From a virus (Duplodnaviria; Heunggongvirae; Uroviricota; Caudoviricetes): DNA of 31,825 bases. Location of the stretch: the IMG/VR virus record IMGVR_UViG_2617270941_000009; one strand, given 5' to 3'. Positions 1,591 through 23,455 of the stretch are shown here, piece after piece. The notes below the pieces were generated by a model. The model was not told the origin of the DNA. It was given only the letters and a program-made list of their open reading frames with translations, and did not search any database. The first letter of the stretch is position 1, and each line of letters begins with the position of its first letter. Made by a program: the position numbers and the translations under genes.

Positions 1591-4500
1591 TATGCAAGCC
1601 TCACAATATAGTTAAATGCGATGTTTTTGACGGTGTTTTCCGCGTTACCCGCAGCGTTAACGGTGATGGTATGTCCATGTGAGCCAATCGCAACGGAGTG
1701 CGTATGAGCACCAATACCGACAGTATGTGCATGTGCGCCTGCGCTTGCAGCAGTGCCGGACAGCGAGTGGGTATGAGCACCATCTGATGATGTCTTCCCT
1801 GCATTACGAGTCTGGCCACTACCGCTTGTTGTGCTCATAATCCCCGCGCTTAGATTTGAAATCGCAGTATAACCATTAGGAAAAATGCTCGTGTTCGTGC
1901 CACCAAATGCACCGGAACTCTTGTGTTGGTGCGCACCGGCACTATTTGCTGTCCCGCTAATACTATGGGTATGTGCACCAGTGTTATTCGTGGATTTAGT
2001 GCCGTAATCAAAAGATGATGTGGTTTTCGTCCCCAAATCCGTACTGGATGCGCTGGCGCTGTGGGTATGCGATTTAATGCCATCCTGTTCCTGAGACAAT
2101 ACGGCACGACCACTGGCGGGCTTGCCCTTAATCGTCCAGCCACGCATATCAGGGATCACGCCTGACGGATAAGCGGCTGCAAGTTTCGGGTATGCAGATT
2201 TGTCAAAAGTCTGCCCCTGCATCAGGGCATAGCCAGACGGAACGGTATCTGATGGCCACGGGATTGGTGCACCGACTGGATAAAACTCTGCAGGAGGATG
2301 AGCCGAGGTGTAAAGCTGCGCCCACGGCGACCAGTTTGCGTCGGTCGTATCCCGTCGTGAACGAATAAATGCCGGAGCATGAGCACCGCTTGTACCACTC
2401 CAGCCGATGAGTAACTCACCTTCGCCAACGGCTGTCATCCCTTTCAGGTGAATGATATTTCCATACGCTGTTGGATATCCGTTGTTATACACCTCGTATA
2501 ACTCAAGACCTGCTGCCCCCTGCGTATTGTCTGTCAGCGCGGTTACCCGACCTTTTGAAGCCAGATTAACTGATGATACTGCTGTTCCACCTGACGGTAA
2601 CGCCCCGATCTCTGATGCCGTTGGCTTATTTCTGGAGTTATAGTCCCTTCGCCAGCCAGGTGAATAATCTGTTCCGTGATTAATATAGGTAAACTGGGCG
2701 TTAGTTGTTCCACCACCAGTGGAGGTGGTCGGTGTGGTAATGCGGATCGTCATCGCTGACTTTATCCCCATTACTTCAATGACAGCTCCGGCGAGATGAA
2801 TATTACCGCAGTCAGTATCAGTAATGATTTTATTATTGCCATAAGACCAGGAACCCTTGCACATCCAGTATGGATGGTTAAATGCTCCCTGAGAATCCAG
2901 CCACTCGATAAACTGTGCAGTCGTCCAGTTTCCTGTTGTTGTGCTTACTGACCCACCGAAGGCACGGCAGGCACCAATATTTTTCGTAAAGGTATCTTTG
3001 CCAGGGATATCCGCACCGTTCTGATCTTTCTGCAGACGTTTCTCAGCATTGTCATTGGCTGCTTTTACTGCCTTTGGTGTCGCGGCAAGCGTTTCAGACG
3101 TGCTGTTGGTCGCGCTGCTTAGCTGGATTATCCCTTTCTGTGCTGTCGTTGCATCCTGTGCGGTGTATTTCCCGTTAGCCAGGTCATACGCGGCCTTAAC
3201 GGCTTTTGGCGTTGCCGCCAGTGACTCGGAAGTGCTGTTGGTCGCACTGCTGAGCTGTACTATCCCCTTTTTCGTCGTGCTCGCATCCTCAAGCGCCACG
3301 GCGGATGCAATATCCTCTGCCCGTTTTGCCGCTGTCTCAGCGCGCGTTGCTGCGGATTCTGCCGTACTTTTGCTCTGTGCTGCCGCTGTCGCACTGCCAG
3401 CAGCCTCTGTCGCCTTTGTGGATGCCGTCGTGGCGCTGCCCTTCGCTGCTGACGCCTGTCTGGTCGCCTCATCTTTTGAAGCAGACGCCGATGATGCCGA
3501 TGACGCCGCCGAACTGGCGGATGATGCGGCAGCCGTTTTTGAGGATTCTGCGCTGGTTTCCGACGCTTTCGCGTTCGTCTCGGATGTCTTCGCTGCGGAA
3601 GCTGACCTCGCTGCTGCGCTGGCCTGTTCAGTGGCTTCGCCAGCCTTCGTTGTGGCTGTTGAAGCAGACGAGGCGGCACTTTCTGCCGACTTTCCGGCAG
3701 CGGTGGCACTGGCTGAGGCCTGCCCGGCACTTGTTGACGCGGCACTGGCAGATGATGCAGCCGCTGTTTTTGAGCCTGCCGCAGCTGAGGCACTCTGTCC
3801 CGCTGCCGTTTCAGAAGACCTGGCGTTCGTCTCGGACGTCTTTGCCGCCTTCGCGGAATTTCCTGCCGCCGTTGCCGAGGAAGCTGCGCTGCTGGCGCTC
3901 GAGGCTGCGCTCGTTTCTGATGATTTCGCTGCCTCTTTTGAGGCCGCCGCATCCCGGGCTGAGGTGGCAGCTTCTGACGCCTTTGTGGTCGCTGCGGATG
4001 CAGAAGTGGCTGCAGATTTTTGTGACGCTGCCGCATTCGTTTCTGACGTTTTCGCGGCACTGGCACTGGTAGCTGCCGCGCTTTTTGAGGACTCTGCAGC
4101 GGCAGCACTTTTTGATGCTTCAGTAGCCTTTGTTGATGCCGTTCCTGCGCTGGAAGACGCTGACTGAGCCGACGTCGCGGCCTGCCCGGCTGATGTGCTG
4201 GCTGCACGTGCTGAGCCTGCAGCATCAGTCGCATGGGTTGCCGCCTCACGGGCTGATGTGCTGGCATCGCTGGCTGACTTCTTCGCGGCTGCTGTGTTCT
4301 GCGCCACTGCGGACGCGTTACGCGCCACCTCTTCCACCATCAGTTCAAAACGGCGCAGTGCCTCAGGACGGGCATCATCCTCCGTCATGGCACCGAGAAA
4401 ATCATTCAGCGTACCGGGTCGGGAATCTTCATACACGGTGATGGTCCCGGCATGTGACGGCGGGAATCCTTCCACCAACAGAATAACGCTGTACTGACCG

Positions 4501-5398: not shown

Positions 5399-6576
5399 TC
5401 AACGAATACTGATGCCGGAAGCAGCCTTTTTGGTCACAATCACCGTACAGTCGGTGATATTACCTGCCCCCTGATTGCCTTTCTGGAAAATCTTAAACTC
5501 CAGAGTGACGCTTCCTCTGCCACTCGGCATATCAATAACCGCACTGTAACTACCGGGAATGGCCCCTTTAGTTTCTCTGGATGCGATTAATACGCCGTTT
5601 TTGCGAACTTCAAAACCATAACCTGTGTATCGCGTGCCTCCGGGGTTATTTCCGCTCCCCGGATCGTCATACGCCACACCGTTAAAAATAATGGGCGGAA
5701 TAATGATTTGACGGTCAAAGTTATGATCATCGCTGATAGTGACTGTAACCGTCCCGTTTGGTGTTTCCGTGTTACCCCACGTACCAGCCTTCTTCGGGAA
5801 TGATTTGGATACTGTTTTAACAAAATCGCCTCTGACCTGATTCGCCTCCAGCATGCCCTTAATCGTACAGTTCTCATTTATCTTGACGTTGTTTAGCGTC
5901 CCGGCGTTCGCATTCACACTGCCACTGATATCCGCATTTTTCGCCGTCAGTCGCCCGTCCGGTGTCAGGGAAAATGCCGGAGGATTACCGCCGCTGGTAA
6001 TGGTAGGAGCCGTCAGGCGTTTCAGGAACACGTCGTTCATGAATATCTGATCGCCCTGCCCAACAAACATCGGCTTTGTGTTGCCATTCGCAGGATTAAT
6101 CATCGCAATCCTGTCTGCCGCCAGCAGCACCTGACTCTGCATGCCGTCAGGGGTGTTCTCAATACCGGCACCAATACCCGCGATATAAAGGCGTCCGTCC
6201 TGCATCTGCTGCAGCTTCACAGCCCACATGCTGTTCAGATTATTATTTGTATCAACCTGAACCTTCTGTATCTGCTGGATCGCTGCACTCTGGTCTTCCA
6301 GTTTCTTATTGACGGTCTGTGTGATTTCATTGCTGACATCCGTAATGGATGTCCTGATTTCAGCCAGGTCAGGCGCAAGCTGACCGTTATCAATCTGCGT
6401 CCACAGCTCCTGAGCCAGATGGGTTTTCCCTATCTCGCCTTTGAAAAAATCCAGATAGCCGGATGCGTCATCACTCGGCTGACCAACAGCCTCCACGAAT
6501 GCCGATTTGCCAACGGTGTTCACACTGCGAACGTAAAAATAATAATTATGGCCCGGCCTGATATTGATACTGGCGG
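5399..6576 (-). pseudogene. J: C-terminal fragment of tail tip protein J (host specificity protein), 5'-truncated by an internal prophage deletion
   Basis: Translation ...[33 protein letters not shown]...[30 protein letters not shown]... resembles the J C-terminal region. The first ~35 residues of the track ORF 5399..6688 are read through the nu1/cos region and are not J. Confidence 0.8.
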
Positions 6577-8888: not shown

Positions 8889-9362
8889 CTATCTGCACTG
8901 CTCATTAATATACTTCTGGGTTCCTTCCAGTTGTTTTTGCATAGTGATCAGCCTCTCTCTGAGGGTGAAATAATCCCGTTCAGCGGTGTCTGCCAGTCGG
9001 GGGGAGGCTGCATTATCCACGCCGGAGGCCGTGGTGGCTTCACGCACTGACTGACAGACTGCTTTGATGTGCAACCGACGACGACCAGCGGCAACATCAT
9101 CACGCAGAGCATCATTTTCAGCTTTCGCATCAGCTAACTCCTTCGTGTATTTTGCATCGAGCGCAGCAACATCACGCTGACGCATCTGCATGTCAGTAAT
9201 TGCCGCGTTCGCTAGCTTCAGTTCTCTGGCATTTTTGTCGCGCTGGACTTTGTAGGCGATTGCGTTATCACGGTAATGATTGACCGCCCATGACAGGCTG
9301 ACGATGATGCAGATAATCAGAGCGGATATAATCGCGGTTACTCTGCTCACTGTTGCCCCCAC
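8889..9362 (-). CDS. Rz: Rz i-spanin (inner membrane spanin subunit)
   Basis: Translation ...[54 protein letters not shown]... matches lambda Rz; N-terminal TM helix. Start may be the GTG at 9362 or the GTG at 9350. Confidence 0.85.
8948..9130 (-). CDS. Rz1: Rz1 o-spanin lipoprotein, embedded in the +1 frame of Rz
   Basis: 60-aa translation [24 protein letters not shown]...[29 protein letters not shown] with lipobox and proline-rich region, wholly inside Rz. Confidence 0.85.
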
Positions 9363-19987: not shown

Positions 19988-21343
<1,356 letters not shown>

Positions 21344-21508: not shown

Positions 21509-21538
21509 GCTCTTAAAAATTAAGCCCTGAAGAAGGGC
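21509..21538 (+). promoter_or_regulatory. nutL: nutL (boxA GCTCTTAA, boxB hairpin GCCCTGAAGAAGGGC at 21524..21538)
   Basis: Sequence tgctcttaaaaattaagccctgaagaagggcagcattcaaagcagaaggctttggggtgtgtgatacg matches remembered lambda nutL. Confidence 0.85.
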
Positions 21539-21696: not shown

Positions 21697-22020
21697 ATGG
21701 ATGCACAAACACGCCGCCGCGAACGTCGCGCAGAGAAACAGGCTCAATGGAAAGCAGCAAATCCCCTGTTGGTTGGGGTAAGCGCAAAACCAGTTAACCG
21801 CCCTATTCTCTCGCTGAATCGCAAACCGAAATCACGAGTAGAAAGCGCACTGAATCCGATAGACCTTACGGTGCTGGCTGAATACCACGAACAGATTGAA
21901 AGCAACCTGCAACGTATTGAGCGCAAGAATCATCGAGTTTGGTATAGCAAGCCAAGTGAGTTCGGTATAACTTGTCAAGGAAGACAAAAGGTTAAAGGGA
22001 AATCCATTCCATTGGCATGA
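21697..22020 (+). CDS. N: antiterminator protein N
   Basis: Translation from the ATG at 21697 (MDAQTRRRERRAEKQAQWKAANPLLVGVSAKPVNRPILSLNRKPKSRVESALNPIDLTVLAEYH...) matches lambda N; the track ORF starts upstream. Confidence 0.9.
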   Translation: MDAQTRRRERRAEKQAQWKAANPLLVGVSAKPVNRPILSLNRKPKSRVESALNPIDLTVLAEYHEQIESNLQRIERKNHRVWYSKPSEFGITCQGRQKVKGKSIPLA

Positions 22021-22028
22021 GGTACGTA

Positions 22029-22898
22029 ATGAAGAAAATTGATTACAAGTCCATACCAAAACCAATAGACTCAGCATCAGAGCGAAAAAAACACAAAAAA
22101 GAGGCTGAAAAATTAGCAAATTATATCAGTTTTATTAGAAACAATGCTCACGGCGATGGCGACAGGAAGTTGCTTTCAGATGCCCGGACCCAAGCGTTCA
22201 GTATACTTCGTAAGCAGATGCAATATCGTCTTCATCCAGGCTACATAATTGAAATTCGCCCGACTGAAAGACAATTGTTCTTATTAAACTCTGTCTTTGA
22301 CTTTGTAAACGTAGTTGGAGATCTTATCGACAGGTCTGTAGATAAGGCTCCTGATACAAATAGTTTTCTTCTAACAAATAAAGAATACTTATATGGTAAA
22401 TTTGGTATAAACGGATGGCAAAAATATGTACGATTCTTACGTGCATTCGTTGATGCGTATAAAAATTCCGACATGATTTATACATATTTGCCTGGTGGTG
22501 ATAATTGTACGCTTTCGGCAGACAATAGAATATTCATACCTATACTTGGTCTTGGGCTGATTAATGCAGTAAATGAAAGAGATGTTATAATTGTTAAGCA
22601 GTGGCGAAAGCATGAGGGATATAGATATCTGCCATGCTTTGATATATTAAAAATACAGAATAAATTCTATGTAAAAATTAAATATAAAGAAGATGTTTTC
22701 TTCCTCAGAAAAAACAAAGATCTTTTACAAGAACTTTCTGGGACAATAGATGTCATCGTAGGTTCTAGGTTTATAAAAGAACTGAAAGAAAGCAGGTCTT
22801 TCTCTCGTGTAGAGATAAGCGAGTCAGAGTTATGGGGTATATCAAATAATCCTGTAAACCACGCTCACCAACGAAATCCAAACAAAAAGTGGTCATAA
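22029..22898 (+). CDS. hypothetical protein (289 aa), AT-rich orphan gene at the ral/sieB hotspot; candidate superinfection-exclusion or abortive-infection factor
   Basis: ORF immediately after N (the track ATG at 22017 overlaps the N stop; the ATG at 22029 with GAGG RBS is preferred). Strongly AT-rich by eye; no catalytic motif recognised; followed by an intrinsic terminator. Confidence 0.55.
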   Translation: MKKIDYKSIPKPIDSASERKKHKKEAEKLANYISFIRNNAHGDGDRKLLSDARTQAFSILRKQMQYRLHPGYIIEIRPTERQLFLLNSVFDFVNVVGDLIDRSVDKAPDTNSFLLTNKEYLYGKFGINGWQKYVRFLRAFVDAYKNSDMIYTYLPGGDNCTLSADNRIFIPILGLGLINAVNERDVIIVKQWRKHEGYRYLPCFDILKIQNKFYVKIKYKEDVFFLRKNKDLLQELSGTIDVIVGSRFIKELKESRSFSRVEISESELWGISNNPVNHAHQRNPNKKWS

Positions 22899-22922
22899 CC
22901 CGCTCAGGCGGGTTTCATTTTC
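22899..22922 (+). terminator. intrinsic terminator after the orphan gene (CCCGC-TCAG-GCGGG + TTTCATTTT)
   Basis: Hairpin and T-rich tract seen in sequence. Confidence 0.5.
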
Positions 22923-23040
22923 ACGCAAACAACAGAATAAACACTGCACTGTGTATTCATTCCAACGAGTGAATACACGGAGCAATGTCGCTCGTAACTA
23001 AACAGGAGTCGACTTGTTCTGATTATTGGAAATCTTCTTT

Positions 23041-23066
23041 GCCCTCCAGTGTGAGGGCGATTTTTT
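23041..23066 (+). terminator. intrinsic terminator upstream of ea10 (GCCCTC-CAGTGT-GAGGGC + ATTTTTTAT), tL-like
   Basis: Hairpin and T-run seen in sequence. Confidence 0.55.
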
Positions 23067-23086
23067 ATCTGTGAGGATATGAACAG

Positions 23087-23455
23087 ATGTCAAACATCAA
23101 AAAATACATCATTGATTACGACTGGAAAGCATCAATAGAAATTGAAATCGACCATGACGTAATGACAGAGGAAAAACTTCACCAGATTAATAATTTCTGG
23201 TCAGACTCTGAATACCGACTCAATAAACACGGCTCTTTATTAAATGCTGTATTAATCATGCTGGCGCAACATGCTCTGCTTATAGCAATTTCGAAAGACT
23301 TAAATGCATATGGTGTTGTTTGTGAGTTCGACTGGGATGATGGAAATGGTCAGGAAGGATGGCCTCCAATGGATGGTAGTGAAGGAATAAGAATTACCGA
23401 TATCGATACATCAGGAATATTTGATTCAGATGATATGACTATCAAGGCCGCCTGA
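23087..23455 (+). CDS. ea10: Ea10-like early protein (122 aa)
   Basis: 122-aa ORF (MSNIKKYIIDYDWKASIEIEIDHDVMTEEKLHQ...), same size and position as lambda ea10 just upstream of cIII; sequence match from memory is moderate. Confidence 0.7.
   Translation: MSNIKKYIIDYDWKASIEIEIDHDVMTEEKLHQINNFWSDSEYRLNKHGSLLNAVLIMLAQHALLIAISKDLNAYGVVCEFDWDDGNGQEGWPPMDGSEGIRITDIDTSGIFDSDDMTIKAA

Follow-up and report, generated by a model that had tools for sequence, protein, structure and literature searches.

Nun of phage HK022 has been treated as a curiosity of this phage that is directed against lambda. It consists of 109–112 amino acids, is largely disordered and carries an arginine-rich motif (ARM) that binds boxB. 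Here we describe a gene in the virus record IMGVR_UViG_2617270941_000009 (Caudoviricetes; the whole stretch of 31,825 nt that was analysed is called the window in the following), whose product of 289 residues ends with the RNA-polymerase arrest peptide of Nun. Unlike Nun the protein is large and folded, no ARM was found in it, and its folded part is predicted to resemble the REC lobe of TnpB and Cas12. On balance, we favour the view that it is a two-part factor that would arrest transcription elongation and in this way provide superinfection or inter-phage exclusion.

In the structure of Nun bound to a transcription elongation complex residues 87–109 alone are ordered, and they hold all known determinants of arrest. 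N97, H98, H100, R102, K106, K107 and W108 contact RNA polymerase, RNA or DNA, or impair arrest when substituted. The hybrid and the downstream duplex have K106, K107 and W108 between them, the terminal carboxylate of S109 is the pairing partner of R102, and H93 and R94 contact upstream DNA. At high concentration Nun arrests the polymerase without nut RNA and is toxic (all PMC5386594). In TnpB, a four-helix REC domain (residues 13–116) is inserted after strand β1 of the WED OB-barrel (residues 1–12 and 117–176). The WED-REC cleft reads the duplex of the transposon-associated motif, and a part of the guide scaffold is held by WED as well (PMC10097598). Exapted TnpBs (sigma-, flagellin-, DppD- and RHH-associated TnpBs and the TldRs) keep the RuvC scaffold in an inactivated or partly truncated form. 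They have 3′ regions long enough for guides and are thought to act by DNA binding (PMC10691335).

The resemblance to Nun is already known as a product name in GenBank, where the counterpart in phage 434 (CPT_434_48) is called "Nun C-terminal peptide-containing protein"; the RefSeq name is "hypothetical protein". The genome announcement of phage 434 is silent on CPT_434_48 (PMC9119081), and our literature searches found no paper on the protein and none that mentions both Nun and TnpB. As far as these searches show, the conservation of the tail and the selection on it throughout the family, the equivalence to the nun slot, the nuclease-free REC-lobe fold, the modular spread of the tail and a sister clade embedded in bacteriophage exclusion (BREX) loci are new.

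The C-terminus is identical to the arrest peptide of HK022 Nun

The gene and the two segments at the end of its product are as follows.

22029..22898, + strand: the studied gene, 289 codons and stop, orthologue of phage 434 CPT_434_48
22806..22853, + strand: residues 260–275, a variable linker, predicted to be disordered (predicted local distance difference test, pLDDT, <50), with 0.38–0.47 non-synonymous differences per site (pN) against two divergent homologues
22854..22895, + strand: residues 276–289, VNHAHQRNPNKKWS, Nun-type RNA-polymerase arrest peptide, identical to residues 96–109 of HK022 Nun

A phmmer search against the PDB sequences aligned the last 27 residues of the protein to HK022 Nun (6ALG chain N), with identity over the last 14, so that all key arrest residues are kept. 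Positions 93–112 of PHROG 5632, the family of Nun-like termination factors, matched residues 274–293 of a 293-residue reading that starts four codons further upstream (E 4e-5). Members of this family have about 40–112 residues and match the whole profile, whereas the protein described here matches over its last 20 residues only.

All seven arrest residues are invariant in homologues of 68, 49 and 42% identity (P0003, P0004 and P0005) and also in a homologue of 36% identity (P0007). Throughout the family V276, N277, H278, A279, H280, R282, K286, K287 and W288 do not vary, and the pattern V-N-H-A-H-x-R-x-x-x-K-K-W stands at the extreme C-terminus. The ratio of non-synonymous to synonymous differences per site (pN/pS) was 0–0.17 for the tail, the lowest of any segment of the gene, with synonymous sites at saturation (pS 0.7–1.3). 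Between two of the homologous loci (L005 and L006) the 14 tail codons showed nine synonymous and no non-synonymous differences. Since the DNA of the tail has diverged to saturation while the peptide has not, the tail is old in this family and is kept at the protein level. In the AlphaFold model it is predicted to be disordered (pLDDT <50) and should be accessible.

Homologues occupy the operon position of nun

Like nun, the gene is found as the first or second gene after pL. In the window, in phage 434 and in two further loci with homologues of 49% (L005) and 47% identity (L054) it starts at most about 10 nt from the stop codon of N. A different arrangement is seen in L006 and L055 (42% homologue), where no open reading frame (ORF) for N lies between the repressor gene and the homologue. 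The leader of L006 aligned to pL and putL of HK022, and over the put element almost every base is identical. The order pL–putL–gene of L006 and L055 is exactly that of the nun slot in HK022. The fold of the L006 leader RNA had a z-score of 0.13, and its recognition as putL comes from the HK022 alignment alone. PutL-like stretches are located at positions 2925–3010 of L006 and 1990–2070 of L004; no Rfam match was reported for putL of the HK022 type.

P0007 (36% identity, tail IVNHAHARNPKKKW), which has diverged most among the homologues with a Nun tail, is encoded at positions 6001–6873 of L058. There its neighbours are ninG and Q, and it is read from the opposite strand behind an upstream gap of 530 bp. 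This setting is a third kind of context, in which the gene possibly has its own promoter.

The folded part is predicted to resemble the REC lobe of TnpB and Cas12

The AlphaFold model built from an alignment of 33 sequences reached a mean pLDDT of 80.4 and a predicted template modelling score of 0.71. Values of about 85–96 were obtained for residues 10–225, and the last 30 residues were disordered. A model from 5 sequences was unusable (pLDDT 50). In front of the linker, three parts can be distinguished.

22029..22238, + strand: residues 1–70, basic N-terminal extension (pI 10.1) with a two-helix hairpin (H16–38 and H43–65), from the AlphaFold model and a charge calculation
22239..22688, + strand: residues 71–220, predicted TnpB/Cas12-like REC lobe, pLDDT 85–96
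22689..22805, + strand: residues 221–259, helices 221–228 and 230–259 (pLDDT about 55–70 over the long one), from model and alignment

The predicted order of elements in the central part is a WED strand β1 (71–77), a helical REC insert (80–145) and further strands (152–219) with a flanking helix (183–196). This order matches that of the TnpB REC lobe, because in both cases the REC helices follow the first strand of WED. When the model was compared with known structures, the best scores were obtained for RdCas12n (10.1, over 143 residues at 4.2 Å), ISDra2 TnpB (9.8), ISFba1 TnpB (9.1) and Cas12p (8.6). The next twelve matches were all from the same superfamily and included Cas12g, Cas12f, LaTranC, Fanzor2, CasLambda, Cas12k and CasPhi. 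Foldseek gave no match at E ≤ 1e-3 against the PDB, with Cas12 heading the list, and weak matches against viral models, with TnpB-like "transposases" of giant viruses on top.

The predicted WED barrel with REC helices after β1 is common to the protein, ISDra2 TnpB (8H1J) and RdCas12n (9UDI). In contrast to TnpB and Cas12, the protein is without RuvC, a TNB zinc finger and a detectable guide RNA but has an RNA-polymerase arrest peptide fused to it; the smallest TnpB is twice its size. After residue 220 it contains just the helices 221–259 and the disordered tail, without a Pfam match to OrfB or RuvC; likewise, the model shows no TNB or zinc-ribbon segment, and OrfB_Zn_ribbon was not matched. 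TldR and the sigma- and flagellin-associated TnpBs are similar to the protein in that a TnpB-derived scaffold without cleavage activity was apparently recruited for control of transcription. The protein differs from TldR by the loss of the whole nuclease lobe and by an effector peptide that would act on the polymerase itself. Our literature searches, including the survey of TnpBs (PMC10691335), found no other TnpB/Cas12-like REC lobe without nuclease lobe that is fused to an effector of the transcription machinery.

A search for an ARM in the protein gave no match to N36 or N_peptide. The basic helix SERKKHKKEAEKLANY, with a spacing as in S24–Y39 of Nun, was considered as a cryptic ARM and rejected: it is rich in lysine, is packed in the predicted hairpin, and its aromatic residue is not conserved (Y to C). 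The sequence SRVEIS was also considered, as a relic of the RuvC-I strand, and was discarded since the spacing does not fit.

Proposed mode of action and alternative explanations

We propose that the protein combines an effector with a targeting module. The disordered C-terminal peptide (residues ~267–289, core VNHAHQRNPNKKWS) would act like the C-terminus of HK022 Nun: it would thread into the elongating RNA polymerase as in 6ALG, lock the enzyme to DNA and RNA, and block translocation. The folded module of about 260 residues (core 71–220, WED and REC fold) would replace the boxB-binding arginine-rich peptide of Nun. In TnpB and Cas12 such a lobe recognises a short motif in double-stranded DNA and holds structured RNA. 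Here the module would attach to a DNA motif or an RNA structure and thereby raise the local concentration of the tail at chosen complexes; these would probably belong to phages in competition or to other mobile elements. Since Nun enters with the β′ zipper on one side and the upstream duplex on the other (PMC5386594), a head that is attached to upstream DNA or to the nascent RNA would be in a good position for this. The phage itself carries N and the following element, so that lambda-type boxB cannot sensibly be the target.

21524..21538, + strand: lambda-type nutL boxB GCCCTGAAGAAGGGC on the pL transcript upstream of N; seen in the sequence and as a hairpin in the terminator scan, with nutL annotated equivalently in phage 434

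The early transcription of the phage itself is N-modified. Complexes modified by N, or by put RNA in the relatives, would be spared. Such self-protection is plausible, and the linkage of the gene to N or put fits it.

Exclusion had been put forward in the original prediction, together with abortive infection and anti-restriction, on the basis of position and composition; the Nun peptide was overlooked there. Exclusion is now the best-supported of these roles. Abortive infection would be compatible with the toxicity of overexpressed Nun (PMC5386594), but no evidence for it was found at this locus, and nothing supports an anti-restriction role.

Several results weigh against the proposed arrest factor or against parts of it. 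The equivalents of H93 and R94 of Nun are not conserved in the family of 290-residue proteins. A promoter scan gave 5 promoter-like sites versus 4.7 expected by chance, and none of them stands out as a promoter of the gene itself. The gene product may appear early in lytic growth only, while classical exclusion depends on expression by a repressed prophage. A ligand, a target site or a partner RNA of the protein was not found, and for a guide RNA beside the gene no Rfam match to known families above noise was obtained in this region of the window or in L006. The TnpB-like fold is assigned from a predicted model built on 33 sequences. At the sequence level, neither Pfam and NCBIfam nor a profile search of the PDB sequences indicated homology to TnpB. 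The β1/helix-1 motif IEIRPTERQ..L...F lines up with VRLYPNAAQ..L of TnpB, but hhalign gave a non-significant 1% probability for the alignment of residues 71–96 (YIIEIRPTERQ...) with residues 6–31 of ISDra2 TnpB (FVVRLYPNAAQ...; the TnpB sequence used is identical to 8BF8). Since the family is rare, comparative power is low, and a minority of the copies are frameshifted, truncated or interrupted by insertion sequences.

A first alternative accepts a working tail and regards the protein as an early-lytic regulator that is made together with N and serves host shut-off or the timing of the left operon, with N-modified complexes being immune. The position of the gene, which adjoins N translationally on the pL transcript and shows no promoter of its own that convinces, fits this explanation, as does the non-specific and toxic arrest of host polymerase by high levels of Nun (PMC5386594). 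However, arrest of this non-specific kind needs no conserved targeting domain of about 260 residues. The gene is also dispensable, as most lambdoid phages have ral and sieB or other cargo in this slot; in another lineage it fills the slot of nun, an exclusion gene; and for P0007 the gene is not part of the pL operon and is found on the opposite strand, behind the 530-bp gap. We consider an early-lytic regulator unlikely.

The second alternative concerns the origin of the tail, which in the 434-type allele is part of a longer stretch of similarity at the DNA level.

22853..~22965, + strand: counterpart of HK022 nun at its 3′ end and of the terminator downstream of nun, nearly identical in DNA sequence; 434-type allele with a mosaic joint in the last 14 codons

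This 3′ DNA with the terminator is common to nun and the gene. Other nun genes match the segment at about 95%, and the rest of the gene is unrelated to nun. With at least about 95% identity to nun DNA over the last 14 codons and the terminator, this is a typical mosaic joint, and the tail might have been recombined in incidentally at a shared 3′ module. The protein would then act via its TnpB-like domain alone, for example as a repressor that binds DNA or RNA or in anti-defence. That the tail differs in distant relatives of the domain is in line with this idea. It is nevertheless improbable, because the key residues are all kept in homologues whose tail DNA is saturated, which marks the tail as old and selected at the protein level. 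Moreover, the tail is always at the extreme C-terminus, as required by the mechanism of Nun with its pairing of the terminal carboxylate and R102 (PMC5386594). The joint is most readily explained by recombination inside a module that the two genes had in common beforehand.

According to a third explanation, an RNA provided in cis or in trans serves the TnpB-like domain as guide or scaffold, and the protein arrests transcription at sites chosen by base pairing, as an RNA-guided Nun. The corresponding lobe of TnpB and Cas12 is in contact with the scaffold of the guide and with the first part of the duplex between guide and target, and nuclease-dead derivatives of TnpB act as RNA-guided regulators (PMC10691335). 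In TnpB, however, the scaffold is held largely by RuvC, and WED, REC and RuvC together form the channel for the heteroduplex (PMC10097598); RuvC is absent here. The Rfam scan, which covers known families and not novel conserved non-coding RNAs, revealed no RNA family adjacent to the gene. The downstream spacer is common to nun and lambda, both without the gene, and relatives embedded in BREX loci have just 23–35 bp to their neighbours. The chance that the protein is RNA-guided therefore appears very small to us.

That the ORF is a decaying remnant without function, for example a fragment of a TnpB element, is hardly credible: frameshifts in an A7 tract, truncations or IS1 insertions affect some copies, and the DNA is AT-rich and looks foreign, but the full-length homologues (36–97% identity) all keep about 290 residues, pN/pS over the whole gene is 0.33–0.49 against divergent homologues, 83 of the 93 copies in E. 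coli cover at least 80% of the length, and the start signals are well formed.

Nun tails on other proteins

In the protein described here, the peptide known from Nun is under strong selection on a completely different and large domain, which would serve in targeting. Other proteins end in this way, too. In the prophage of L005 N, the 290-residue gene and a small Nun-type gene follow each other in tandem. The last of these is an ORF of 102 codons that had not been called (9037–9345, + strand, directly after the 290-residue homologue), with the arginine-rich motif GRRRALRMQQRRD and the Nun tail VVNHAHQRRPNKKWS.

ORF43 of Hafnia phage Pocitis76 (L003, 2276–2542) encodes 88 residues with an ARM of the lambda N type (Pfam N36) and a Nun tail. 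Proteins of this type, also represented by P0046, P0049 and P0050, are encoded right after the phage's own and different N. In some sources they go under "antitermination protein N" or "transcriptional regulator"; arrest factors of the Nun type, directed against lambda-type boxB, are the more likely identity. Further small proteins (37–88 residues) with Nun tails and differing ARMs were obtained for Hafnia, Raoultella, Providencia, Proteus, Serratia and Photorhabdus. The small proteins (37–102 residues) and the protein of the window have in common the invariant tail VVNHAHQR..KKW(S) on exchangeable heads, often encoded right after N; the small ones have peptide ARMs, whereas the family described here has a large folded head.

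The census of tails required queries of at least 40 residues, scored only 52 candidates and did not return Nun itself. No other large folded head with a Nun tail was among these 52 candidates, which is a weak negative given the size of the census and the missing Nun. Taken together, the Nun tail behaves as a portable effector on exchangeable targeting heads, often beside the antitermination device of the phage itself. With a large head it occurs in the classic phage 434 and in about 1.7% of the complete E. coli genomes, and with small heads across the Enterobacterales. This suggests a modular weapon of more general use in conflicts between phages, the jamming of RNA polymerase by a threaded peptide.

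In phage PA28 and in Stx1a phages an ORF of 45 codons after N (L002, 2447–2584) corresponds to the C-terminal 45 residues of Nun without an ARM. It is annotated as a Nun-like termination factor and is probably a truncated remnant of nun.

Distant relatives of the head are found in BREX loci

A profile search of 1.84 billion representative proteins yielded 27 hits, about 20 of which are distant relatives. The distant relatives are 140–473 residues long (most of them 213–326) and match residues ~73–220, some up to ~279. Core and pre-tail motif are homologous (profile E 1e-5 to 1e-19). Shared motifs of the core are L.P...Q...L..LF.GP, FLL.NK, CSIS and RY...F. The pre-tail motif S..YSR.dF is seen in the protein of the window as ESRSFSRVEIS (residues 254–264; S..YSRvDF in the relatives). 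The N-terminal extension is specific to the phage subfamily, and in the alignment it is absent or non-homologous in the distant relatives, most of which are without the N-terminal hairpin. In place of the Nun tail, the relatives end in a different and strongly conserved peptide, GGLPSLGKRR. No model of Pfam, NCBIfam or PADLOC matched them (8 were tested with PADLOC).

The contexts of the GGLPSLGKRR relatives (P0011–P0041; 213–326 residues) that were examined are BREX or other non-phage neighbourhoods and not lambdoid prophages. The four clusters P0031, P0033, P0035 and P0036 are located between brxC and pglX, for P0035 and P0036 with 23–35 bp to each neighbour. In the variant of BREX to which they belong (L008, L011, L012, L014 and L017; e.g., positions 3128–16867 of L011), the relative is fixed at this place, has 276–288 residues, ends in GGLPSLGKRR and is followed by genes for proteins of 376 residues, 423 residues and 610 residues (HSP70-like) and by another gene of the PglX type. 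L011 and L014 also have a WYL-domain gene on the opposite strand, a few genes further upstream. The extra genes of this variant had no match in PADLOC, and HSP70 was their sole match in Pfam. Other relatives stand beside NYN/OST-HTH, RelA-SpoT and PLD-MZB-helicase genes in one case, and beside a giant DEAD/MZB helicase and a UvrD helicase in another. Outside BREX, the defence settings of the core domain are thus marked by DISARM-like and helicase genes, and one relative is in a non-defence setting. The many defence contexts support a conflict-related role of the domain and say nothing direct on its mechanism.

To our knowledge, the mechanism of BREX is still unresolved, and the embedded homologues are a lead in this respect, no more. 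It is conceivable, though at a very low probability, that the half-TnpB loads an RNA that comes in trans or is excised from a transcript, or reads a programmable signature in nucleic acids, and would thus bring the jamming peptide to transcription complexes chosen by sequence, and that the GGLPSLGKRR clade is a missing targeting or effector component of this BREX variant.

Gene locus, distribution and intactness

The window is an imm434-type lambdoid prophage in which reading proceeds leftwards, out of the replication genes and into the pL operon. Its genes are arranged as O, cII, cro, cI(434), hex, pL/nutL, N, the studied gene, ea10, cIII, kil, gam, bet and exo; int follows at the end of the window, and then host ybhC at the lambda attachment site. 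The following elements flank the gene.

21697..22020, + strand: antiterminator gene N with the lambda-type ARM MDAQTRRRERRAEKQAQWKAAN (Pfam N36, E 2.9e-26; phage 434 annotation)
22019..22022, + strand: GAGG Shine-Dalgarno sequence 6 nt before the ATG at 22029 (from sequence; ribosome binding site annotated at the same place in phage 434)
22897..22924, + strand: first terminator-like hairpin AACCCGCTCAGGCGGGTT with T-run, overlapping the stop codon of the gene and common to nun genes (terminator scan, alignment)
23039..23070, + strand: second terminator-like hairpin with a T7 run, just upstream of ea10 and common to lambda (terminator scan; annotated terminator in phage 434)

An ORF of 293 codons is present at 22017..22898 (+). 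Its first ATG, at 22017, overlaps the stop codon of N (TGA, 22018–22020). The ATG at 22029 is the best start and results in 289 residues; it is also the annotated start in phage 434, and all homologues begin there. Because GAGG overlaps the stop codon of N, translation of the gene is probably coupled to that of N. With 35.1% GC (30% at third codon positions) the gene is clearly AT-rich compared to N (48%), bet (53%) and the whole window (45%). An open frame of 289 codons is expected by chance at about 8e-11 per start at this composition. Hairpins with T-runs at 22897–22914 and 23039–23060 precede ea10, which begins at 23087. In other E. coli prophages the interval between N and ea10 holds ral and sieB, a gene of the Nmad5 family or an HNH gene.

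The layout described in the original prediction was confirmed in these points: an AT-rich gene for 289 residues that starts essentially at the N stop, stands where others carry ral and sieB, and is followed by two terminator-like hairpins before ea10. The absence of a catalytic motif also held, as scans of the protein against Pfam, NCBIfam and PADLOC-DB 2.0 gave no match and no enzyme motif was recognisable. Its position directly after N recurs in phage 434, L005 and L054. The gene is like lambda ral and sieB in occupying the N–ea10 interval with accessory genes of host-phage conflict, but has no sequence or predicted structural relationship to them; no match to the Ral or SieB families was obtained in Pfam, PHROGs or NCBIfam. 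The label of an orphan from an unknown family has to be modified: the gene is unstudied, but it corresponds to CPT_434_48 with its Nun-tail product name, and its product is a full-length member of PHROG 12139 (function unknown, E 6e-204).

In a megablast search against phage genomes matches were found in phages 434 and 434B only (98.1% identity). Lambda imm434, the hybrid of classic experiments, is without the gene and matches the window only from 22927 onwards. Among complete E. coli genomes 93 of 5426 contain the gene, and one of the displayed copies is interrupted by IS1. Among 5.8 billion database proteins, matches at E ≤ 1e-3 were limited to five clusters. A metagenome scan revealed only 2 loci, and scans of the GTDB species-representative genomes found nothing.

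Frameshifts in relatives, which had been named as evidence against a functional gene, do occur, in 4 of 33 IMG/VR loci, but the great majority of E. coli copies are close to full length (see above). All frameshifted alleles are altered at the same site.

22085..22091, + strand: A7 homopolymer, codons 19–21; A6 or A8 in the frameshifted alleles

These variants reflect either homopolymer sequencing errors or a slippage-prone on/off site. Two chimeric ORFs were seen in other genomes (P0009 and P0010): in one the N-terminus of Bet is joined to the last 73 residues of the protein, and in the second an unrelated N-terminus is joined to residues 52–108. They indicate deletions or insertions that run through the gene in some prophages.

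A further ORF in the window (20867–21343), which overlaps the end of cI(434), corresponds to hex of phage 434, which encodes a repressor protection protein; the record of phage 434 calls an earlier assignment of its start codon wrong.

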